The notes under the pieces were generated by a model. The model was not told the origin of the DNA and did not search any database. It saw only the letters and a program-made list of their open reading frames with translations. Made by a program: the position numbers and the translations under genes. A stretch of 62,810 nt of DNA, counting the filler. It is 3 parts of 3 records of this genome, joined end to end, with 100 filler letters (N's around TTAATTAATTAA, not from the genome) between each part and the next. Parts side by side here need not be neighbours in the genome. Positions count along the whole stretch, not along the records: positions 31,692 to 62,810 come from SRR31156797_12047; 2 more parts are not named here. The stretch is one strand, 5' to 3'. Position 1 is the first letter of the stretch; every line of letters begins with the position of its first letter. Positions 31,692 to 62,630 of the stretch are shown piece after piece.

Positions 31692-32724
31692 GAGCTTTGC
31701 CAAAAGTTACTTGTTTTGTAGGCGGTGAAGTTCCCGAGTAAGTGTATGTAATGGCTGTGATTTGCACATGCTTTTGGTTACCAAATCTATCCTCAACAGT
31801 AACGGTGTCACCTATGTCATAACAAATCCTGTCATTGTCGAAGGTTTCGCCAGATATGGAATATGCCTTGTCGAGTTCCAGCAGAGCAGATTCTCCCCGA
31901 GCATTTAGCTCAGCTGTGGATTCTGCATCACGAACATCAACAAAGGTTTCATTTCTGTCCAAACCTTCAGCAGTATTATCATTGAACTTCTCAATGACCT
32001 CTCTGTCAGTACCTTCACCTTGCCCTGCAATATAACCCATAGTTTTATAACTTGAACAATTTAGAGTTGTAGTAGCAGTACGAAGTGTATTAAGTCTTAG
32101 GCTAAATATAGCCCTTGTGTTGTCGCTTTGATTTGCTGTTCTATTAACTCCCTCATACACAGATAATACTATGCTTTTGGTTCGCAGGTTAACTGTGGAT
32201 TTCAATCCCAGTTTATCAATAGCTAATATACTGTATATTTCAGTATTGAGCTTCTTATATCTTGATGAGTGGTCAATGGCAGAACCTAAGTTATTACTTT
32301 TAACTGATAAATTAGAGACTTTTCTGGCTGTATCTGTAGGATTAACCATACATCTGTCAATCATGTCATTAACAATTATGCCAGTTTTTTGAGATGAATA
32401 GCTTACATTTTCAAGTCCTGTTTCAGGTACGATTACACGACGAGATATAATATCTTTAAGTTCAAATCCTGTAATAGTTAAATTCTCATTAGCATAATTG
32501 TTTTGTGATAATATCTGTGTATCATTTATATATCCGCAAATTTCATCAGATATATAGATGATATAACCACTTTCGATGTATACTGCCTGCCTGTCATTTG
32601 CATTGATAACAAGAGTGAAACTGCCGGCAGTGTTCAGATTTTGTGTGAATGTGAATGATACCCATTTTTTAATAATTGCTTTCTGTGTAAGGTCCTTATC
32701 CAATACAATTATCTTATTCATCAT
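31692..32724 (-). CDS. minor tail protein (ReqiPepy6 gp37-like), truncated
   Basis: AGQGEG..R, RNETFVDVRD, GDTVTV; follows Dit. Confidence 0.8.
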
Positions 32725-51340: not shown

Positions 51341-51886
51341 ATGAATATTGGTGAAAAAATAAAACAACGTAGATTAGAACTAGGGTTACCGGTTGATGAT
51401 GTTGCAAAAAAGCTTGGTAAAAATAGAGCAACAATATACAGATATGAAAGTAATGAAATTGAGAATATGCCAATTACAGTATTGGCTCCATTAGCGAAAA
51501 TTCTTGAAACAACACCTGCGTATTTGATGGGATGGCTCGAAGAGCCATCTATAAATACTCATAATAATATATCTGTAACTAATAGTAGTAAAGTGGAGAA
51601 TTTAAACAATAATAAGAATCATCCAAACAAATTAGATAGTATAAAAAGAATAACTGATAATTTGGCGACGATGACGGATGAAGAGATTATTATGTTTGAA
51701 AGAGTGTTTAAGCATATGAAAGCCAATCCGAATATGTTTGAAGGTTTAGACGAAGAGATTATATATAATTTAGGCATGATAATGGGTGTTCTAAGCCATA
51801 TGGGAAATGTAGACAAGATAGATAAGGCATTTAAGGAATTAGAAAAGCTTAGTATATCGGATGAGGAAAATAAAATGAATAATTAG
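51341..51886 (+). CDS. CI-like repressor
   Basis: IGEKIKQRR...TIYRYESNEI...TPAYLMGW. Confidence 0.85.
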   Translation: MNIGEKIKQRRLELGLPVDDVAKKLGKNRATIYRYESNEIENMPITVLAPLAKILETTPAYLMGWLEEPSINTHNNISVTNSSKVENLNNNKNHPNKLDSIKRITDNLATMTDEEIIMFERVFKHMKANPNMFEGLDEEIIYNLGMIMGVLSHMGNVDKIDKAFKELEKLSISDEENKMNN

Positions 51887-52596: not shown

Positions 52597-53099
52597 ATGA
52601 ATGAGAATAATGTAGAAACAAATGTAACTGAACAACAAAAGCCAAAAAAGAAATTCTATCAAAAATGGTGGTTTTGGGTAATAGTAGCTGTGTTACTGAT
52701 TGGTCTTTTAAATGGGGGAAATGATGACGATTCAAAGAGTGTCTCTCTTTATAAGCCACTGCAACGGCTGAACTTACACAGGTGCCAACACCTGAGCCTA
52801 CTTTAGAACCAGAGGGAACAGAAGAACTAACGGATGATATGACTGATGATCTATTAGCTGTTTTGATTGAAAGTTTTAAAGGAACTAGTACTGTTACAAT
52901 TGATAGAGAACTGAAGGTATATAATGTTATACCGACTGACCAGGGATTTACAGATAGCCTTAATGCTATAGCCGAAGGTGATACATCCCTGTTTGATGAA
53001 TGGGATATTATTTGTACTGGCTTTGAGGAATTGTCAGATTCTGTTTATGATATGACCCAATATTCGCTCTGTTGTTTTACTGTATGGATGGAGAGATGA
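52597..53099 (+). pseudogene. frameshifted membrane-anchored surface protein
   Basis: KKKFYQKWWFWVIV anchor ORF continues as ATATAELTQVPTPEPTLE in another frame near 52750. Confidence 0.55.
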
Positions 53100-53258: not shown

Positions 53259-53287
53259 TTGACAATTGCAATGCTAGCAAGTATACT
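53259..53287 (+). promoter_or_regulatory. sigmaA promoter of four-gene cargo operon
   Basis: TTGACA-17-TATACT. Confidence 0.8.
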
Positions 53288-53350
53288 CATATTTGAATGT
53301 GTCTGGTATGACACATTTATAATTGCTTAACATGAAGTGGAGGGATAATA

Positions 53351-54613
53351 TTGTACGTTATAGAGTTACCCGAAAAATTTACGTCATACACTTTTTTTAA
53401 TGTTTTCTTATCACGGATAAAAGACTATATGCTAAAAAATAGAAATGAAAAGCTTATTATTGACATATCTTCAACTGTTGAGTTTGACAGTATAGCATTA
53501 GTACATCTTTTAGTACTAGGAACAGTATTGAAGAATAGTAGTATATCTGCTGAACTCATAATTGGAAACAATTCAAGAACAAAAGGTTATTTGTTCTATA
53601 TAAAGTTCTTCAAGCTAGCAGCCATGAATTATAATAATTTAGGTTCAATTTTCAAAATACCAAACCATGCTTATGGAGGATTTAACGATGTAGTTTATAA
53701 GAATATACCTCCTATATCTTTAAATAACAAAAATAAAAGTAATGAGTTTGATAAACATTATTCACCAATAATTAAAGAATTTTATGGAATAATTGATGAT
53801 AATACTGGATTAAATGACAGAAGTTATGCAGCTAGAAATAAATATTTAGCTGCTACAAATGTCATTACTGAATTATTGCTGAATATAGATGATCATTCAA
53901 AATCAATAGGATATTATACCATTCAAAAGGCAAAAAGTAACGGGGTATTTAAGATGTGTGTTAGTGATTGTGGTCAAGGAATATATAATTCGATTGTTAA
54001 TAAATTAGGTGTGAAACATAAGGATTATGAAGAAAAAAACTTTGAATTACAAATATTTACAAAGAAGCAATTTAATAAAAAGTCCGCAAAAGATGAAAGT
54101 GGAAATTACTTACTCGCAATAATTGAAGCATTATTTCATAGAGCTTCAGACTATTCATTATACAAAATGGGAGTAAATTATGGTTTGTTTGGTGTTACTG
54201 CACACACTATTAATTCTGGAGGTGTAGTTCGTATACATACAGGAGATGTGCAGTTAATAATAAACGAAAATTTATGGTCTAGCACTTTAAGTGAGACATC
54301 AAAAATAATAAATAGTATTGAAAAAATGAATTCATCAAGCATTCAGTATATAGACAAAATTGATTTAGTTAATGATAATGAGCAAATAAAAAAGCTAATT
54401 CATAGGTATAATGATGAACATAATACTAACCTGAAATCAATAGATGAAGTAAAAGACTTTGAGATTGATATATTGAAAAAGAAATTTAAAGAAATAGCAC
54501 TAAATAGAAAAGAACAAAAGTACCAGGTTACTAGTAAAAGATTAAGATTTTTTTATAGTAAGCTTGCAGGAACACATGTTGAGATTGAGATATATAAGCA
54601 ATATATATTATAA
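53351..54613 (+). CDS. STAS-like + HATPase_c (GHKL kinase-like) protein
   Basis: LIIDISSTVEFDSIAL; ELLLN, DCGQG, NYGL, GTHVEI; GGAGG RBS with TTG start. Confidence 0.75.
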   Translation: MYVIELPEKFTSYTFFNVFLSRIKDYMLKNRNEKLIIDISSTVEFDSIALVHLLVLGTVLKNSSISAELIIGNNSRTKGYLFYIKFFKLAAMNYNNLGSIFKIPNHAYGGFNDVVYKNIPPISLNNKNKSNEFDKHYSPIIKEFYGIIDDNTGLNDRSYAARNKYLAATNVITELLLNIDDHSKSIGYYTIQKAKSNGVFKMCVSDCGQGIYNSIVNKLGVKHKDYEEKNFELQIFTKKQFNKKSAKDESGNYLLAIIEALFHRASDYSLYKMGVNYGLFGVTAHTINSGGVVRIHTGDVQLIINENLWSSTLSETSKIINSIEKMNSSSIQYIDKIDLVNDNEQIKKLIHRYNDEHNTNLKSIDEVKDFEIDILKKKFKEIALNRKEQKYQVTSKRLRFFYSKLAGTHVEIEIYKQYIL

Positions 54614-54634
54614 AATAAAGGGAAGAAGGAACCA

Positions 54635-55654
54635 ATGGTAGAGGGACTAGAATATAGATTAACAGTAAATGAAGATTGTAAAATTGTATATTTAAATGCG
54701 CATCTGTTTAATGTAAATGATAATAAAACTAAGCACTTTAAGGATTTTAAACTAGATGGAAGCACTGCATCAAGTATTATAAATAGGATTAAACATTATG
54801 AAAATTCTGGTATTAATTTTCTTTATGTTATAGATTTAGATCTAATTTTAGAAGCTCATCACTTTTTTAAGAAATTCAAGAAATTATTTCAAAGCAAAGA
54901 TATAGAAATTTTCTTTACTAATGTTACTAGGAATGATATTAGTACTGTGTTGTGTGAAGAGATAGGTATTGATACTATTTTACAATCTTCATATAATATT
55001 AAACATTATTCGAGTGTATCAATAATAGAAAAATATGGATTGTTATTGTCTAGTATTTGTTTTAAGAAATTACGAAGAACACAGCTTCACACTCATTTAA
55101 TGAAAAAATCTTTAGAGCTTAAAAGTGATGATAGGAAATTAGAATATCTGAATTCTTCAAATTTATATACTGATTATTATATCAATGCTAAGACTTATTT
55201 TACACATCCAATATATTATTTTAAAGTTGTATATGAATTGTGTATAGAAATTCTATTGAGCAAAGCATCATTTGATTTTATTGTATCACCTAGTAATAAT
55301 GCAAGTATTTTGGCAACGGGAATAAGTCGACTGCTAGGAGTAGAATCTGTATGCTTGCATAACATTGGGCCAATACAATCCTTTAATGACAAGATGTTAT
55401 TTGAAAGAGTTCTCGCAGATAAAAGATACTTGTTTATTTACGACTTTATGTGTCTAGGGTCTGAGATGAGAAGAACAATGTTTGTATTAAGTCTAAAGAA
55501 TAGCAAGTTAGTAAGCGCAGTAGGAATATCGGTATTTAAGTTGCCATTTAGAAACCCAGATATAAAGATTTTTGATAATGTACACTACTTATTTAATATA
55601 AATGAACTAGACGAATATAATTACAATTGTTACTTTGAAGCTTCAGATAACTAA
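54635..55654 (+). CDS. degenerate type I PRTase-fold protein
   Basis: SSNLYTDYYIN, FDFIVSPSNNASILA, YLFIYDFMCLGSE. Confidence 0.65.
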   Translation: MVEGLEYRLTVNEDCKIVYLNAHLFNVNDNKTKHFKDFKLDGSTASSIINRIKHYENSGINFLYVIDLDLILEAHHFFKKFKKLFQSKDIEIFFTNVTRNDISTVLCEEIGIDTILQSSYNIKHYSSVSIIEKYGLLLSSICFKKLRRTQLHTHLMKKSLELKSDDRKLEYLNSSNLYTDYYINAKTYFTHPIYYFKVVYELCIEILLSKASFDFIVSPSNNASILATGISRLLGVESVCLHNIGPIQSFNDKMLFERVLADKRYLFIYDFMCLGSEMRRTMFVLSLKNSKLVSAVGISVFKLPFRNPDIKIFDNVHYLFNINELDEYNYNCYFEASDN

Positions 55655-55674
55655 AGCAAGGGGAGAATGTAAAA

Positions 55675-57387
55675 ATGCCAAATCGTAATAAGTTTTTAAA
55701 GAAATTCGAGGAAATGTCACCAGAATATTTTAGTAAATGGGAGAAAGCAAAGAATTTTCTGCAACCAATATTAGATAAAGAACTTGAGAATAATAAGTTT
55801 AATATATTTAGCGATATTGCTTATACTCCGCATGATTACAGTAGACATTGCAAAGGGTTGTATAGAAACTTGGATAAGATGTTAAATGATGATGTATATA
55901 ATAAAATAGGAGATGAAGGATTATATTATTTAGCTTGCTCAGTCCTTTTACATGATGTAGCTATGGCTGTAAATCCACTTTGTCGTGATTATCATGCTGA
56001 TGCGGGTGCAAAAATTACGTTTGGTGATATTAAAATCGATATATTAACAGATAATTACTATGGTGACATTAACAGAGCGGACTTATTGGATTTTACATTT
56101 AATAAGTATTCTAGTTTTGTTAAAAGTATAATAGAGGAGATAATAGGGGAAAGAGAAAGAGAGATTATTGCATATATAATACTAGGGCATTCAGATATAA
56201 AATTTAAGGGAGAACGTATAAATATACTAAAGGAGTTAGATAAGGCGAATATTGTATGTGAAGATTCTAATGCGGATCCAATTGATATTCAACTCTTAGC
56301 AGTTTTGTTAAGATTAGCAGATGAGTTAGATGTTACAAACCACAGAATTGCAGACCTTTCTCCAGAAATATATAGTCTTAGTCTTGAATCTACAAAGCAT
56401 TGGGACAAATTACGCCTTATAAAGAAGGTGGATATTCGTGATGATGGAAATATTAAACTAATTGTTAGTAACAATATAATAAGAGATAATTATAAATACT
56501 ACTTTAAACTATTATATGAAGTAGAAAATAAAATAAATGGAGAGCTTCAAAATCTACGTGAAACTAGTTTATATAGTAGGGTGCGTTGGATGAATTACAA
56601 TAAAGTACTATTTGTATTTGGGGAAAGACTAGAAGATGATTATAACAGATTTGTTGCTGATAGACTAGATGGAACTGTTTTTAGTACCATTGATTCCGAT
56701 GTTGTATCAGAGGTTGAGGAGTTTATTAAAGTGAAAAATCTGATCAAAGAGGTGCACTATAGAATTAGTGAAAGTTATTGTATTAGAGATTACGTAGATA
56801 CACATGACATAATTTCGAACACGGAGCTACTAAATAATATAAGCCTGGCATATCATGATAAATTAAATGAGATTTGGAATGATTACAGTAATGAGAATAC
56901 ATATGCGATAGGTATTGATATAGAGGGCATGATTATGGCTGCGAACTTCTCAATTAATTATGATATAGCTTTTTCATATGTGCTTAGTAATCATTTAACT
57001 CAAAAGCATGATGAACATGATAGGATAGTTAGATTTGACACATTCCCAAAGTATTTAATTATTTTTATAAGTGCAGTTGTAAGTTGTAATACGATTGATA
57101 AAGCAATAAATTATTTAATTGAAGTGGGGATAATATCAGGTGAAAGCTCTATAGCTGTTTTTACAATATTAGAAAGAAAACCTGCTAAATTATTCACGGA
57201 ATATAGAAAATATAAGGAGATTATAAAAACAAAGAATGGAATTCTTGAAAAGTACAATTTGGATAGTGGACATTTATATGCAATTACTTCAAAGTTTGAT
57301 GTAGAGATATGTCCAAAAAATCCTAATCAATGTCTACAATGTTTGTATTCTAGTGATAACCATAAAAAGGAGGCAAATACTTTATGA
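55675..57387 (+). CDS. HD phosphohydrolase fused to degenerate PRTase-like domain
   Basis: TPHDYSRH, LLHDVAM, H, GH, LRLADELD..R, KHW; IGIDIEGMIMA; C-terminal CxxxxxxCxxC. Confidence 0.75.
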   Translation: MPNRNKFLKKFEEMSPEYFSKWEKAKNFLQPILDKELENNKFNIFSDIAYTPHDYSRHCKGLYRNLDKMLNDDVYNKIGDEGLYYLACSVLLHDVAMAVNPLCRDYHADAGAKITFGDIKIDILTDNYYGDINRADLLDFTFNKYSSFVKSIIEEIIGEREREIIAYIILGHSDIKFKGERINILKELDKANIVCEDSNADPIDIQLLAVLLRLADELDVTNHRIADLSPEIYSLSLESTKHWDKLRLIKKVDIRDDGNIKLIVSNNIIRDNYKYYFKLLYEVENKINGELQNLRETSLYSRVRWMNYNKVLFVFGERLEDDYNRFVADRLDGTVFSTIDSDVVSEVEEFIKVKNLIKEVHYRISESYCIRDYVDTHDIISNTELLNNISLAYHDKLNEIWNDYSNENTYAIGIDIEGMIMAANFSINYDIAFSYVLSNHLTQKHDEHDRIVRFDTFPKYLIIFISAVVSCNTIDKAINYLIEVGIISGESSIAVFTILERKPAKLFTEYRKYKEIIKTKNGILEKYNLDSGHLYAITSKFDVEICPKNPNQCLQCLYSSDNHKKEANTL

Positions 57388-58007
57388 ACATTATTAAGCC
57401 TAGTTTTGAAATTCTTTCTGAGATTGATAGTACTAATATTTTATCATCAATTGAATTGTATGGAAGGGTTTGTTATAAGAGCGAAAATAAAATTACAAAT
57501 GAATCATCAAAGAAGTTTATAGGAATGCTTATTGGCAGGGGACATGAATCTGTGTTAGAACACGAAAAGATTAGTGTTAAGATAATATGTGATAGGGGAG
57601 TAACTCACGAAATTGTAAGGCACAGAATTGCTAGTTATAGCCAAGAAAGTACAAGATATTGCAATTACTCAAAAAATAAGTTTGGTAGTTCACTAACTTT
57701 TATTAAGCCTAGCTTTTGGGACGAAAACAGTCCACAATATAATGTATGGAAGAGTTCAATGAAGCGTATTGAAGATGAATATATGAAGCTTATTGAAATG
57801 GAGGCGGCACCAGAGGAAGCAAGAAGTATTCTGCCTAATAGCCTTAAAACAGAAATTGTAGTTACAATGAACCTAAGAGAATGGAGACATTTTTTCAGAT
57901 TGAGAACAAGTGACAAAGCACATCCTCAAATGCGTGAAATTTCTCGTCCATTATTGGACGAATTTAAAAAGCGAGTTCAAACTGTTTTTGATGATATTTC
58001 TTATTAA
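57384..58007 (+). CDS. thyX: flavin-dependent thymidylate synthase
   Basis: GHESVLEH, RHRIASYSQES (RHRx7S), NLREWRHF, AHPQMR. Confidence 0.95.
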   Translation: MNIIKPSFEILSEIDSTNILSSIELYGRVCYKSENKITNESSKKFIGMLIGRGHESVLEHEKISVKIICDRGVTHEIVRHRIASYSQESTRYCNYSKNKFGSSLTFIKPSFWDENSPQYNVWKSSMKRIEDEYMKLIEMEAAPEEARSILPNSLKTEIVVTMNLREWRHFFRLRTSDKAHPQMREISRPLLDEFKKRVQTVFDDISY

Positions 58008-58051
58008 TATTATACAAATGTTTTTTGTGTTATTCATTTAGATGTAGTTCG

Positions 58052-58096
58052 ATAAATACACCCTCTGGCACATTGTGTTTTGGAGGGTGTATTTAT
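58052..58096 (+). terminator. terminator-like hairpin closing the cargo operon
   Basis: perfect 14-bp ATAAATACACCCTC/GAGGGTGTATTTAT. Confidence 0.7.
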
Positions 58097-58232: not shown

Positions 58233-59459
58233 ATGGCGATAAGCTATAATAAGCTTTGGAAATTGCTTAAAAATAGAGGAATGAATAAAACGCAATTGAA
58301 GGATGCAGCAGGAATTAGCTTTAACGTATTAGCCAGGTTGGGGAAAGACAAACCTGTTTCAATGGAGAGCATCGAAAGAATATGCTATGTGTTAGATAGC
58401 AATATTGGAGATGTAATGGAAATAGTTAATACTAATAAAGATAACCAAGGTAGAAAGTTCAAAGCCATTGAGTTATTTGCAGGGGCAGGTGGTTTAGCTC
58501 TCGGTGTAGAAATGGCAGGTTTTGATACTATAGGGTTAGTCGAAATAGACAAATATGCTTCTGATACACTGAAGCACAATAGACCAATGTGGAATGTAAT
58601 AAATGATGATATAGCTAAAATATCATCTCAAAACCTAGAACTGTATTTTGATATAAAAAAAGGTGATCTAGACTTGCTTTCTGGAGGCTCACCTTGCCAA
58701 TCATTTTCATATGCAGGAAATAGATTGGGTCTTGAAGATGCAAGAGGAACATTGTTTTATCACTATGCGAAGTTCTTGCAAAAGTTACAACCTAAAATGT
58801 TTCTATTTGAGAATGTAAGAGGACTATTGAGCCATGATAAGGGTAGAACATTCTCAACCATACATGATATATTTGAAGAAACTGGATACACAATTCAAAA
58901 AGATGTTCTTAACGCTTGGGATTATGGTGTGCCACAAAAGAGACAAAGGTTGATAACTGTTGGCATTAGAAATGATCTTACAGATAAGATTAGCTTTGAT
59001 TTTCCTGAACCACATGCATATAAACCTGTTTTAAGAGATATTCTATTGGATTGTCCTAAAAGTGAGGGATCTCCTTACTCAGAGTATAAGCGTAAGATAT
59101 TTGATTTAGTACCTCCTGGAGGATACTGGAGAGATATACCAGCGGACATTGCAAAGGAGTATATGAAGAGTTGCTGGAATATGGGAGGTGGAAGAACGGG
59201 GATATTGAGAAGGTTAAGTTTAGATGAACCTTGTCTGACTGTACTAACATCTCCGAGCCAGAAACAAACAGATAGATGCCATCCACTAGAACCAAGACCT
59301 TTTACTATTAGAGAAAATGCTCGTTGCCAGAGTTTCCCGGATGAATGGCATTTCTGTGGTAGCGTAGGGCAGCAGTACAAACAAATAGGAAATGCAGTGC
59401 CAGTTAAATTGGCATATGAGATAGCGTTAAAAATAAAAGAGGGATTAGAGAAATTATAA
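58233..59459 (+). CDS. dcm: C5-cytosine DNA methyltransferase with N-terminal HTH
   Basis: FAGAGG, GSPCQ, ENV, QKRQR, QIGNAVP; N-terminal Cro/C1 HTH. Confidence 0.95.
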   Translation: MAISYNKLWKLLKNRGMNKTQLKDAAGISFNVLARLGKDKPVSMESIERICYVLDSNIGDVMEIVNTNKDNQGRKFKAIELFAGAGGLALGVEMAGFDTIGLVEIDKYASDTLKHNRPMWNVINDDIAKISSQNLELYFDIKKGDLDLLSGGSPCQSFSYAGNRLGLEDARGTLFYHYAKFLQKLQPKMFLFENVRGLLSHDKGRTFSTIHDIFEETGYTIQKDVLNAWDYGVPQKRQRLITVGIRNDLTDKISFDFPEPHAYKPVLRDILLDCPKSEGSPYSEYKRKIFDLVPPGGYWRDIPADIAKEYMKSCWNMGGGRTGILRRLSLDEPCLTVLTSPSQKQTDRCHPLEPRPFTIRENARCQSFPDEWHFCGSVGQQYKQIGNAVPVKLAYEIALKIKEGLEKL

Positions 59460-60256
59460 TGTGGGATTTAAAATTTATAGGTGAAGAGGATTTTGTAAAG
59501 CATGTTGAAGCAACAATACAGAAGTATGGAGAGAAATTGGAACCATATGGCTTAAAGAGGTTTAATACAAATATTATTGATCCTATAAAGCTAATATTTG
59601 ATAAAACAGTATATCAATCAACCTGGGAAGAGATTGTTTCAAATGAAATATTCCGTCAGCGTGACAAATCAAATAACAATGATATCGGCTATTTTCATCA
59701 GCGTATATTTCAGTACATTGATAACTGTGTAGTTCCTCAAAAAGGTTGGGATGTAATTTATAATAACGAAGATGGTATTAGGTTACCTGATGATAGTATG
59801 GTTCATACTGTATATGTAGAATTAAAAAATAAGCATAACACAATGAATTCTTCCTCTGCTAGTAAAACATTTATCAGAATGCAAAACCAATTACTGCAAG
59901 ATGATGATTGTGCATGCTTTCTAGTGGAAGCAATTGCTAAAAAATCACAGAATATTAAATGGAAAACTACGGTTGATAAAGTCAAGGTTAGCCATAAATT
60001 AATACGAAGAGTTAGTATTGATGAATTCTATGCTTTAGTAACTGGTGAGGATGATGCTTTCCATCAAATGTGTATGGTATTACCAGGTATTATTCAAGAT
60101 GTAGTTGATAGACTTGGTGATGCTATTGTTCCAGAAGATACGGTTCTAAACGAACTAAAAGCGATAGCTCAAAAGCAAGACATTGATGATGATGATTTTG
60201 CTATTGCTATGGCTGCTTATATATTAGGATTTAGTACATATAAAGGGTTCAAATAG
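59459..60256 (+). CDS. type II restriction endonuclease, Eco47II/Sau96I-like
   Basis: IDPIKL.FD, RQRDKS..N.IG.FHQ, GWDV, ELKNKHNTMNS. Confidence 0.85.
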   Translation: MWDLKFIGEEDFVKHVEATIQKYGEKLEPYGLKRFNTNIIDPIKLIFDKTVYQSTWEEIVSNEIFRQRDKSNNNDIGYFHQRIFQYIDNCVVPQKGWDVIYNNEDGIRLPDDSMVHTVYVELKNKHNTMNSSSASKTFIRMQNQLLQDDDCACFLVEAIAKKSQNIKWKTTVDKVKVSHKLIRRVSIDEFYALVTGEDDAFHQMCMVLPGIIQDVVDRLGDAIVPEDTVLNELKAIAQKQDIDDDDFAIAMAAYILGFSTYKGFK

Positions 60257-60287: not shown

Positions 60288-61448
60288 ATGAAAAGACAGG
60301 GTAAAAAAGAAAAGAAAAGTCCAAAGAGTATACATAGAGAATCTAAAAAAACATGGGTAACTGTATTATACATATTATGTATTATTATATTGATATCAAT
60401 TAATGTATTCTGCATATCTAGATTAGTGACAATTTTAAATAAAATGGATTTAAGTAATAAACCTAATATTATCATTCAGATTGCAACAATGATTGAGTCT
60501 TTTGGCTTTAATACTATACCTGATGTTAGTGTTGTAGACTTAGTAACAGTAGCTACAATATTATTGTTAATTGTACAACTATTTATGTTAAAAAGGTCAA
60601 ATATTAATACAAAAAAGAGTTTTGATCAGACAAACACACAAGAGATAACTAAATTTTACATGAATGTTATTATACCTAGAATGGATTTTTTTGACAAAGT
60701 GTTTGCTCAAAGTGAGAAATATAATAAAGTAGTTGAACTAATTAGATCTTCAAACTATTTAATATATGAATTTAATGAAGCTGACTTAAAGCTGATCGGG
60801 AAAGTAATTGATGATGATAACTTTCAGAATTTAACTACTGAAAAGTATTATTTTAGTAGTTTTATTTCTAATGAATTTTTTAAAAAGTATAATTATGATT
60901 ATTTAAAAACTATATTAAGTTGTGCTTTTAATGTGCCTTATAATAATAATATAATGAGTGATAATGATGCATTAAAAACATTCTTAGTATTTGAGTTAGA
61001 GAAAATGCTAGATAATATTGAGTATTTTAGTACCGTATTGTTCTATAATAAGTCATGTAATAAATTGTGTTATTCTAGTATACATAGGAACTTCATTCAA
61101 ACAGTTGAGAAGTTACATTTTTTTATTTGCAAAAACAATGGAGAATATAAGGAGTATTATCAACCCAATACTATTTTACTGTATAAAAACTGGAAAAAAA
61201 GAAATGGAGAAGAGATAAGACTTAGAAAGTTGAACAAATCATCGTTGTTATATCGTTGGTTGAATAGGAATAATACATTTGATTTGCTAAAAATAATTAT
61301 GATATCTTTTATTCCTATGTTTCTTTTCTCAATATATGCAGCATATAACTCCGAATTTTTTATGAATTCAACTTTTGGTTTACTTATATACATTATATAT
61401 GTTTTTATTCTAATCTTTTCTTACTGTATTTATTTAATCTTTCAGTAG
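60288..61448 (+). CDS. hypothetical membrane protein (two N- and two C-terminal TMs)
   Basis: hydrophobic segments flanking a soluble helical core. Confidence 0.7.
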   Translation: MKRQGKKEKKSPKSIHRESKKTWVTVLYILCIIILISINVFCISRLVTILNKMDLSNKPNIIIQIATMIESFGFNTIPDVSVVDLVTVATILLLIVQLFMLKRSNINTKKSFDQTNTQEITKFYMNVIIPRMDFFDKVFAQSEKYNKVVELIRSSNYLIYEFNEADLKLIGKVIDDDNFQNLTTEKYYFSSFISNEFFKKYNYDYLKTILSCAFNVPYNNNIMSDNDALKTFLVFELEKMLDNIEYFSTVLFYNKSCNKLCYSSIHRNFIQTVEKLHFFICKNNGEYKEYYQPNTILLYKNWKKRNGEEIRLRKLNKSSLLYRWLNRNNTFDLLKIIMISFIPMFLFSIYAAYNSEFFMNSTFGLLIYIIYVFILIFSYCIYLIFQ

Positions 61449-61523: not shown

Positions 61524-62630
61524 TTGGCTACAATAAACAAATATAAAACTAAAGATGGCCAACAAAGATACCGTGTTCGCTGGACAGATGATTTAGGCAG
61601 GCAAAAAAGCAAATCATTTGACCGGTATAATATTGCTCGCAGCTATCAGAATGAAATAGAACACACGATGAGAGTAGGGGAGTATGTTAGCCCTGATAGC
61701 CTTACAGTAAAAGAGTTCTTAGATAGTTGGATTGAAACTCATAAAGCTAATTTAAAGCCTAATACTGAGCGTGGTTATAGAAATGATATCAAGCACATTT
61801 GTAATCACTTAGGACAAGTTAAGATTCAAAGCATAACTCCTGTAATGATTGAGGATATGTATGCTGCACTGCAGAAAGATACCAAGGATAAAAAAGGTTT
61901 ATCAGGTACTTCGGCATTAGAAGTACATAGAGTATTATCAAAAGCATTGCAAAGGGCAGTCAAAAATAGATTGATACCATATAACCCATGTACTGTAGTA
62001 GATGCTCCAAAGAAGAATACTAGTTTTAAACCAAAGTTTGTGCATCCTGAGGATATAGATAAATACCTAAATGCATTTGAAGGCCACTATATGTATACTG
62101 CTGTGTGCCTGGCAATTTTCGCAGGACTGAGACGTGGTGAAGCTCTGGGCTTGTGCTGGTCAGATATCAATAAGAAAAATGAGATAGTCAGTATAAATAA
62201 ATCTCTAGGATATCATGGCATATCAACCACGAAATCTGGCAAAGAGAAAACACTACCTATGTTTGATACACTAGCTACAATTTTGGCTAAGCAAAAAGAA
62301 TATCAAAGAATTAACAAAGAGCTGCACTGGGATAAATATATTAGATCTGATTATGTAGTTACAAAGCCAGGAGGAGGATCATTAAGTGTTAAGTGTTTCT
62401 CCGGACTATATAAAAAGAGACTAGAAAAATCAGGTCTAGAGTTTGTAAGATTCCATGACTTAAGGCATACATTTGCTGCACTACTTATCTTTGCAGGTGT
62501 AGATCTAAAAACAGTAAGTGAGTTAATGGGGCATAGCAGTATTAAGATCACAATGGATGTTTATGGACACCTCTATGATGAGCATAAAAAGAAGCAGATA
62601 TCAAAGCTGAATCAGTTCTATAAAGCGTAG
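61524..62630 (+). CDS. int: tyrosine integrase
   Basis: GLRRGE, FHDLRHT, MGH...Y; AAGGAGG RBS. Confidence 0.95.
   Translation: MATINKYKTKDGQQRYRVRWTDDLGRQKSKSFDRYNIARSYQNEIEHTMRVGEYVSPDSLTVKEFLDSWIETHKANLKPNTERGYRNDIKHICNHLGQVKIQSITPVMIEDMYAALQKDTKDKKGLSGTSALEVHRVLSKALQRAVKNRLIPYNPCTVVDAPKKNTSFKPKFVHPEDIDKYLNAFEGHYMYTAVCLAIFAGLRRGEALGLCWSDINKKNEIVSINKSLGYHGISTTKSGKEKTLPMFDTLATILAKQKEYQRINKELHWDKYIRSDYVVTKPGGGSLSVKCFSGLYKKRLEKSGLEFVRFHDLRHTFAALLIFAGVDLKTVSELMGHSSIKITMDVYGHLYDEHKKKQISKLNQFYKA

Follow-up and report, generated by a model that had tools for sequence, protein, structure and literature searches.

A conserved four-gene prophage cassette encoding STAS-GHKL, phosphoribosyltransferase-like, HD-CE and ThyX proteins as a candidate anti-phage module

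What is the function of four closely packed genes which lie between the repressor and the integrase of a prophage and end with a thymidylate synthase gene? This question is raised by the cassette at positions 53259 to 58096 of the analyzed stretch of DNA (hereafter the window, 62,810 nt with filler included, of which positions 31,692 to 62,810 originate from SRR31156797_12047). Its genes, here named A to D, encode a protein with a STAS domain and a probable GHKL ATP-binding domain (A), a protein with a STAS-like domain and a phosphoribosyltransferase (PRTase) fold (B), a protein with an HD-CE domain and a second PRTase-like domain (C) and the thymidylate synthase ThyX (D). The reading which we favor, and to which we give about an even chance, is that of a toxin-antitoxin-like or abortive-infection module directed against phages, which would follow the logic of the VapKSC system, use HD-CE as nucleotide effector and ThyX as accessory, and be carried as prophage cargo.

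All four genes are located on the plus strand. According to the listing of open reading frames (ORFs), gene A (53351-54613, 420 amino acids) starts with TTG and is preceded by the sequence GGAGGG at a distance of 7 nt, gene B (54635-55654) encodes 339 amino acids and gene C (55675-57387) encodes 570 amino acids. The start of gene D (57384-58007, 207 amino acids) overlaps the stop of gene C by 4 nt, so that the spacings within the cassette are 21 nt (A/B), 20 nt (B/C) and -4 nt (C/D). The GC content of the cassette is 28.8% vs. 42.5% in positions 1-50000 of the window. This agrees with the original prediction, which had described four co-oriented AT-rich genes separated by about 20 nt or overlapping, with their own promoter and a closing hairpin. 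The hairpin was recovered at about 58054-58096 on the plus strand as a strong stem (-28.4 kcal/mol, z-score -5.7, none of 200 shuffled sequences being equally good). It is followed by the sequence ATTTATTC and is a probable terminator with a weak T-tract, although a terminator scan of the cassette region called no site, this hairpin included. The promoter-like site TTGACA-17-TATACT (53259-53287, plus strand) is also present, 64 nt upstream of the start codon of gene A, and is the top match of the promoter scan with 11 of 12 positions. As a predicted promoter it counts for little, however, because the AT-rich region yields many such sites (48 vs. 39.6 ± 6.0 in shuffled sequences), and only its position weakly favors it.

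The order A-B-C was recovered in 10 other loci when aligned relatives of C, and later aligned relatives of A, were used for scanning. These loci belong to Desulfosporosinus sp. FKB (L001), to metagenome-assembled genomes (MAGs) of Thermincola (L002), Bacillota (L003 and L004), Acutalibacteraceae (L101) and Acetatifactor (L102), and to four metagenome contigs (L082-L085); all named hosts are Bacillota. Gene B adjoins gene C in all 10 loci, and gene A is located upstream in each of the nine in which this can be judged, L085 beginning inside gene B. ThyX follows gene C in eight of nine judgeable loci, L082 ending 71 nt after gene C; in L101 neither a ThyX gene after gene C nor a remnant of one was detected by tblastn. 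Across the loci the gaps between the cassette genes range from -47 to +47 nt. Conservation of the four-gene synteny elsewhere was a test set beforehand, and the recurrence of the gene order in 10 other loci shows that the cassette is more than a chance arrangement. The opposite view, that the four genes are unrelated neighbors in AT-rich cargo, is strongly disfavored and has hardly any probability left: the frequency of promoter-like matches in the region is compatible with it, but the same order and tight spacing recur in 10 other loci of different families, and modeling supports an interface between the products of genes B and C.

Between loci, the copies of A share a median of 28% pairwise identity, those of B 25% and those of C 27%, compared with 65% for D. 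As judged from the sequences, the divergence of A to C resembles that of an arms race. Within the class the cassette is rare: of the 399 genomes which were sampled from it and scored (two more could not be scored), a single one, the seed itself, contains gene A. A word-based protein search returned nine relatives of C, one of A and none of B; these small counts reflect the method, because an exhaustive profile search shows a large A family with 908 clusters (defined at 50% identity) at E ≤ 1e-3, 351 at E ≤ 1e-10 and 133 at E ≤ 1e-30. A single-protein locus search with C and a genome scan with the single distant A member P0063 gave no match.

Gene C encodes the predicted effector. Its residues 49-291 match the Pfam family HD-CE (PF24391) with 65.9 bits at a cut-off of 27, and the same family is matched by the relatives L001, L014, L015 and L086. 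The HD metal-binding motifs TPH, LLHD, GH[ST]D and RxADELD are conserved throughout the alignment (12 of 12 sequences), the window copy included. The abbreviation CE stands for conflict effector (bioRxiv 10.64898/2026.01.15.699771; PMC10853773), and the members of this family set are described as predicted effectors acting on nucleotide pools (bioRxiv 10.64898/2026.01.15.699771). The C-terminal domain (residues ~350-520) has a PRTase fold like that of orotate phosphoribosyltransferase (OPRT) and PyrR, with profile E-values of 1.5e-7 to OPRT and 1e-5 to PyrR. In type I PRTases, the loop binding phosphoribosyl pyrophosphate (PRPP) consists of four hydrophobic, two acidic and two hydrophobic residues followed by T/S-G-x-T. 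The loop of the window copy (LIIFISAVVSCNT) does not conform to this motif, as it contains neither an acidic residue nor the glycine; it reads ISAVVSCNT, vs. TDVIVTGNT in most relatives. Degenerate loops occur in 5 of 12 relatives (the window copy, P0005, L082, L083 and L084), with the glycine lost in L082, L083 and L084 and the acidic residue lost in P0005 too. An HD hydrolase with a degenerate PRTase, as C had been described, is what these results show. The conflict-effector families including HD-CE were reportedly defined by Nicastro, Burroughs, Iyer and Aravind in Nucleic Acids Res in 2023; to our knowledge there is no biochemistry on HD-CE, and no tested member of the family was found. 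Two loci have two ORFs in place of a continuous gene C (L003, 2586-4216; L085, 608-2309), which could be due to a frameshift, to decay or to an assembly error.

Gene B has no Pfam match at E ≤ 0.01. For its residues ~5-137 only STAS domains were matched, namely SLC26A11 (Z 7.6), RsbS (7.2), SpoIIAA (6.2-6.3) and RsbV (6.1), while residues ~148-330 form a PRTase fold (Foldseek E 4e-5) with PurR (Z 11.1), APRT (10.9) and OPRT (10.8) as matches. Its profile hits four OPRT entries with E-values of 4e-5 to 6e-3. The PRPP loop of B, YLFIYDFMCLGSE in the window, does not fit the type I motif; it is altered yet invariant, with D270, F271, C273, G275 and E277 kept in 10 of 10 sequences, as is the OPRT-like upstream motif S174, Y182 and F189. 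From these residues it appears that the pocket could bind a ligand, whereas PRTase catalysis in B is doubtful. The earlier assignment of B as a degenerate PRTase was correct in the fold, which is of the OPRT kind, and in the altered loop, but it had overlooked the N-terminal STAS-like domain. Neither B nor C matches the conflict-effector PRTase models (PRTase-CE, PF24390, and PRTase-CE_2 to _4) in a Pfam-A scan at E ≤ 0.01. When members of the B alignment were scanned at E ≤ 1, one of five matched, and this only to the generic Pribosyltran family; a cluster of look-alikes obtained with a language model, 15% of them PRTase-CE members (score 0.86), is a lead only.

Because the PRPP loops are altered in B and degenerate in 5 of 12 C sequences, both PRTase folds look non-catalytic, and B or C as a working OPRT enzyme was rejected for the same alteration. 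The prediction of the B-C complex reached a score of 0.75, vs. 0.48 for the best control. Among solved complexes 51 of 78 attain this mark, and among mismatched pairs 2 of 108; the supplied alignments were not used by the predictions. At least 72% of the contacts agree between runs, and the pLDDT (predicted local distance difference test) of the partner is at least 78. The predicted interface connects residues 375-455 of C with residues 158-258 of B, and thus one PRTase-like domain with the other. The model supports binding of B to C through these domains, and the predicted interface together with the damaged catalytic loops lets the two OPRT-like domains appear as a latch and not as enzymes.

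Gene A also lacks a Pfam match at E ≤ 0.01. Residues 1-106 give a confident STAS model which matches RsbS best (Z 9.6, root-mean-square deviation 2.6, 94 aligned residues), followed by the stressosome protein RsbR (Z 9.4), TM1442 (9.3), RsbV (9.0) and SpoIIAA (8.6). Downstream of this domain the GHKL motifs are invariant in eight sequences, both in the N-box (E174, N178 and H182) and in the G1 box (D206, G208 and G210), and profile matches to ATP-binding domains of histidine kinases range from E 6e-4 (YycG) to 4e-3. The assignment of A as a STAS domain with a GHKL domain, already made in the original prediction, holds, and the GHKL domain is of the histidine-kinase or anti-sigma type. An HSP90/MORC-type GHKL protein was also considered and rejected, as the profile matches are histidine-kinase-type domains. 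The window copy has a predicted helical insert of ~85 amino acids (residues ~305-400), which is missing in 7 of 7 aligned relatives (316-370 amino acids).

The phosphorylation gating which had been proposed finds no support, since a conserved acceptor serine is missing in B. At the modeled start of helix 2 of the STAS domain of B (residue 75) the window copy carries a histidine, and no serine or threonine is conserved there; a serine is located at or next to this column in 4 of 10 sequences. Since the alignment is shallow with these 10 sequences, the result is held with moderate confidence. Protein A may instead be a switch which works by ATP-dependent binding, or it may modify another site.

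In the favored reading of a VapKSC-like anti-phage module, C would be the effector. Its HD-CE domain is predicted to cleave phosphate bonds in free nucleotides, and the substrates are probably pyrimidine (deoxy)nucleotides. B would be an adaptor or antitoxin-like regulator in which the OPRT-like domain contacts its OPRT/PyrR-like counterpart in C as in PRTase dimers, and its conserved pocket probably senses a pyrimidine nucleotide or a PRPP-type ligand in the manner of PurR and PyrR. The STAS domain of B would serve as a handle for A, the ATP-dependent STAS-GHKL switch, so that upon an infection signal A would bind or modify B, and C would be freed or activated. D would be a working accessory ThyX, which most likely keeps or re-sets a thymidylate supply disturbed by the effector or by the phage. 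The pyrimidine theme of the original prediction fits, as OPRT and PyrR are the kind of PRTase which the two domains in B and C resemble.

Several observations weigh against this reading. The GHKL domain of A is recognized by motifs and weak profile matches; the match to the anti-sigma F kinase is weak (E 0.5), and the AlphaFold model of A is poor outside the STAS domain (pLDDT below 50 in the GHKL part). The STAS match of B is middling (Z 6.1-7.6), and B is without the conserved acceptor serine or threonine which marks partners of the CapS/VapS type. The score of the B-C prediction may reflect likeness to PRTase homodimers, because type I PRTase dimers are among the solved structures; the prediction cannot tell heterodimers from homodimers, and one control scored 0.48. 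A sequence search of C against solved structures found no relative for the HD-CE part. In PADLOC-DB v2.0.0 there is no meaningful match for A to D of the window or for A to C of L001, one Cas8e match in the scan of the window proteins (E 0.007, 13 bits) being disregarded; this provides no direct link to a validated system, and the gene set had not been recognized as a named system before. Defense-type neighbors were found in only some loci, and the identity of 59% between the cassette ThyX and a ThyX from a housekeeping context does not point to a special role. D may be a plain metabolic ThyX.

Gene D exceeds the cut-offs of both family models, Pfam Thy1 (PF02511; 179.4 bits, cut-off 24.8) and TIGR02170 (146.9 bits, cut-off 87.9), and aligns to the ThyX of M. 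tuberculosis with E 1e-21. Its ThyX motif RHRIASYSQESTRY (= RHRIASYSQESTR; consensus RHRxxSxxxxSxR) is intact, as had been noted before. All four genomes with a cassette ThyX which were examined carry a further thymidylate synthase, namely a second ThyX (G001 and G002), a ThyA (G004) or both (G005). ThyX looks like an accessory, because it is absent from L101 and because the host genomes have another thymidylate synthase. The genome of L101 (G003) harbors elsewhere a frame of 461 amino acids with two tandem Thy1 domains (G003:C19:32330-33559).

The ThyX proteins closest to D (67-71% identity) are encoded by the terminal genes of another operon type, found in L014 (633-5215) and L015 (941-6636) with the same architecture confirmed in both. 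It consists of a stand-alone HD-CE gene, an ORC-CDC6-like ATPase gene (PF24389, E 1e-102), a CARF gene (PADLOC CARF6 model, E 3e-77) and thyX, and in L015 a C5 methylase gene is located upstream. In a maximum-likelihood tree, eight cassette ThyX, both ThyX of the ORC/CARF-type operon and the ThyX of L016 form one group (support 84/85). The ThyX of L017, which lies in a housekeeping neighborhood (glgB, rho and ftsW) and provides the identity of 59% mentioned above, falls outside this group. ThyX in the cassette is a dedicated, redundant copy, which was repeatedly recruited to HD-CE modules and can be lost. In L016 (6001-9562) the ThyX of the cassette clade is followed by a GNAT and S-adenosylmethionine-methyltransferase fusion of 518 amino acids and an AAA ATPase; HD-CE was not detected there within 10.4 kb.

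There is also a bolder extension, which we regard as a minority possibility. Here ThyX would be integral and not a passenger, and the immune system would be built around the control of thymidylate. HD-CE would collapse or edit the pyrimidine deoxynucleotide pool in a regulated way, ThyX would be the antidote or co-effector which decides between thymineless arrest and recovery, the dead OPRT-like domains would form latch and sensor, and the STAS-GHKL protein would be a switch acting without a phospho-serine. If true, the cassette would be the first immune system of this thymidylate-control type.

ThyX and HD-CE could be co-effectors of a pool-normalizing defense, gated by A and B, against phages which replace thymine by deoxyuridine, 5-hydroxymethyldeoxyuridine or derivatives, which we consider rather unlikely. 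HD-CE would remove the non-canonical pyrimidine deoxynucleoside triphosphate (dNTP). The extra ThyX, which is of another type than ThyA and not related to it, would use up dUMP and replenish dTTP, and the phage DNA would then contain thymine and be open to restriction. Thymine-replacing Bacillus phages shut down the dTMP supply of the host, which counts in favor of this proposal, as do the presence of ThyX in eight of nine judgeable other cassettes, its strong constraint (65% identity vs. 25-28%) with intact catalytic residues, its constant position as a second thymidylate synthase, its recurrence with HD-CE in two operon types and the pyrimidine kind of both PRTase-like domains. Against it stands L101, which has neither ThyX nor a remnant. 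The restriction-modification (R-M) genes bear on it in both directions: they adjoin the window copy, and the C5 methylase adjoins L015, but the adjacency is not conserved.

The folds of the cassette proteins (two PRTases, ThyX and HD) could also form a route to a modified pyrimidine nucleotide or nucleoside, in which a PRTase-like reaction would be combined with C5 methylation of the ThyX type and dephosphorylation by HD, and the product would be an alarm signal or an antiviral analog. The conserved pocket of B suggests a specific ligand, and a CARF nucleotide sensor adjoins ThyX in the second operon type. This proposal is nevertheless very unlikely, given that the cassette ThyX is near ordinary ThyX (59% to L017) with a standard dUMP motif, that the PRTase loop varies among C relatives, that ThyX is dispensable in L101 and that neither a nucleotidyltransferase nor a cyclase is present.

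The prophage setting of the cassette was found as originally described, between repressor and integrase and directly in front of an R-M system. A helix-turn-helix (HTH) repressor-like gene is located at 51341-51886 and the integrase gene at 61524-62630, and the cassette lies on the strand of both, whereas an anti-repressor gene, a Cro-like gene and a replication gene are located on the opposite minus strand. Downstream of the cassette follows a C5 cytosine methylase gene (58233-59459, plus strand), whose product of 408 amino acids carries an N-terminal Cro/C1-type HTH in the same protein, and directly downstream of it an Eco47II-family endonuclease gene (59459-60256, plus strand), the start of which overlaps the methylase stop.

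Signs of mobility were found at other loci as well, in agreement with the original view of this position as a hotspot for prophage defense cargo. The DNA of L001 is the same as that of an 82-kb IMG/VR provirus (L080 and L111), and its cassette is followed by genes for a resolvase and for an OLD-type AAA_15+TOPRIM protein. In L002 the cassette is preceded by an integrase fragment and followed by a UvrD-type helicase gene, and in L083 a Cro/CI-type HTH gene is located upstream. As individual cases, these neighbors fit mobile or defense-island cargo. No R-M genes were found in the scanned flanks of L001, L002 and L083. Of the HD-CE/ThyX loci seen, L015 alone, whose operon is of the second type, has a neighboring C5 methylase gene. 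The adjacent R-M system as a part of the unit was rejected, as it is not conserved at the other loci.

The location in proviruses also raises the question whether the cassette is not a defense system at all. It could be an auxiliary pyrimidine module of the prophage, in which an extra thymidylate synthase together with salvage or phosphatase enzymes, controlled by a STAS/GHKL stress-type switch, boost or tune the nucleotide supply for the phage or the lysogen, or feed a modification of DNA bases. ThyX is common in phages, and D matches PHROG 85 with E 7e-51; two copies of the cassette lie in proviruses, and the OPRT-like, HD and ThyX proteins could in principle make a salvage route. However, PRPP loops which are altered in B and variably destroyed in C (5 of 12) speak against catalytic PRTases, A to C diverge far faster than ThyX, and C belongs to HD-CE and not to a housekeeping HD family. 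With a promoter-like site and a hairpin of its own, the cassette occupies the lysogeny-side strand, away from the replication genes, and it has no linked gene for a polymerase, a kinase, a glycosyltransferase or a deoxyribosyltransferase. Moreover, a tblastn search with C gave no match in records of isolated phages and plasmids. Taken together, we judge the auxiliary module to be unlikely. A megablast search of the cassette and of window positions 25001-50000 against the phage collection was likewise without a match.

Further ORFs were identified on both sides of the cassette. Upstream, an ORF of 69 amino acids (52597-52806, plus strand) matches the N-terminal part only of superinfection-exclusion (sie) PHROGs (E 3e-6). 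It is overlapped in another frame by an ORF of 105 amino acids (52782-53099, plus strand), which matches phrog_28133 with E 5e-5. As far as the sequence indicates, the two ORFs may represent a single sie-like gene, disrupted by a frameshift, which directly precedes the cassette. On the other side, the space from the Eco47II-like endonuclease gene to the integrase gene contains a further cargo gene of 386 amino acids (60288-61448, plus strand) with a GC content of 23.9%, for which no match was found in Pfam, PADLOC, NCBIfam and PHROGs.

Several recently tested bacterial immune systems attack nucleotide pools. Two features of the cassette would be new biology once confirmed, namely the reuse of PRTase folds to form a heterodimeric latch and sensor, and the repeated recruitment of an additional, dedicated thymidylate synthase to HD-CE modules which differ in architecture. 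The repeated recruitment of ThyX hints that the thymidylate supply is contested between phages and hosts. The cassette is an easy entry point for testing HD-CE, because it is compact and self-contained, its effector is clear, and it combines a predicted latch between adaptor and effector with a switch whose relatives were recently found to work. As the A family is large (908 clusters), one worked example could annotate many genes.

The closest parallel among known systems is given by VapKSC and CapKS. The STAS-GHKL kinase VapK phosphorylates a conserved serine of the STAS antitoxin VapS, by which the toxin VapC is freed, and E. coli with this operon is protected against a phage (Chambers et al., EMBO J 2026, PMC13373217). 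Activation by single-stranded DNA is a further mark of the kinase-STAS modules. The first gene of these modules encodes a STAS-GHKL protein and the second, directly downstream, a STAS-led protein, like genes A and B; in VapKSC the third gene encodes a toxic enzyme restrained by the STAS protein, and B is likewise predicted to bind C. The modules are also described there as lying in or beside immune loci and R-M systems (PMC13373217). A was likened to CapK and VapK by its domain layout only. In the same account the effector is a PIN nuclease or a repressed operon, whereas that of the cassette is an HD-CE and PRTase-like protein; their adaptor ends in a short C-terminal helix or a winged HTH, whereas B has a whole OPRT-like domain, and the predicted contact in the cassette is made by the PRTase-like domains and not by STAS. 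Their absolutely conserved acceptor serine or threonine is missing from B, and the cassette adds ThyX as a fourth gene. Because this acceptor is not conserved in B, the mechanism of VapKSC is not simply transferable to the cassette.

The conflict-effector systems are resembled in that C belongs to HD-CE and in that the second ThyX-linked operon uses the ORC-CDC6-like family PF24389, the accession of which neighbors that of HD-CE. HD-CE was reportedly defined as a predicted immune effector directed at nucleotides, which occurs together with varied sensor and switch modules. The PRTase-like domains of B and C differ from them by missing the PRTase-CE models and by their non-catalytic appearance. 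The switch modules described by Nicastro et al. in 2023 are said to be of the HSP90/HSP70 type, while that of the cassette is a small STAS-GHKL protein. Within the same family set, PUA-Calcineurin-CE-HAD comes near in principle, since its Calcineurin-CE, a sister family of HD-CE, was shown to deplete dNTPs (bioRxiv 10.64898/2026.01.15.699771). As described there, a CE phosphoesterase and a partner enzyme collapse the nucleotide pools after a nucleotide ligand has been sensed, but the folds are calcineurin-like, HAD and PUA, and neither ThyX nor STAS/GHKL is part of the system.

The pairs RsbW-RsbV and SpoIIAB-SpoIIAA likewise combine a STAS domain with a small GHKL ATP-binding protein, and RsbS, RsbR, RsbV and SpoIIAA are the top fold matches of the cassette STAS domains. 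The cassette differs from them in having no sigma factor, no PP2C phosphatase gene and no conserved phospho-serine, and in the fusion of STAS and GHKL in A. PurR, the best structural match of B, and PyrR use PRTase folds as ligand sensors fused to another module; they regulate transcription or RNA, whereas no DNA- or RNA-binding domain was found in the cassette. A link of ThyX to HD-CE, PRTase, STAS or CARF in defense was not found in the open full-text literature, supplements aside; an earlier description is possible. The original prediction had not recognized the gene set as a named system, which is right insofar as PADLOC gives no match, but C belongs to the named family HD-CE, and the layout of A, B and effector parallels that of VapKSC. 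The cassette combines two known kinds of system, a kinase-STAS-toxin module and an HD-CE effector system, and what sets it apart from both is the accessory ThyX and the predicted PRTase-fold latch.

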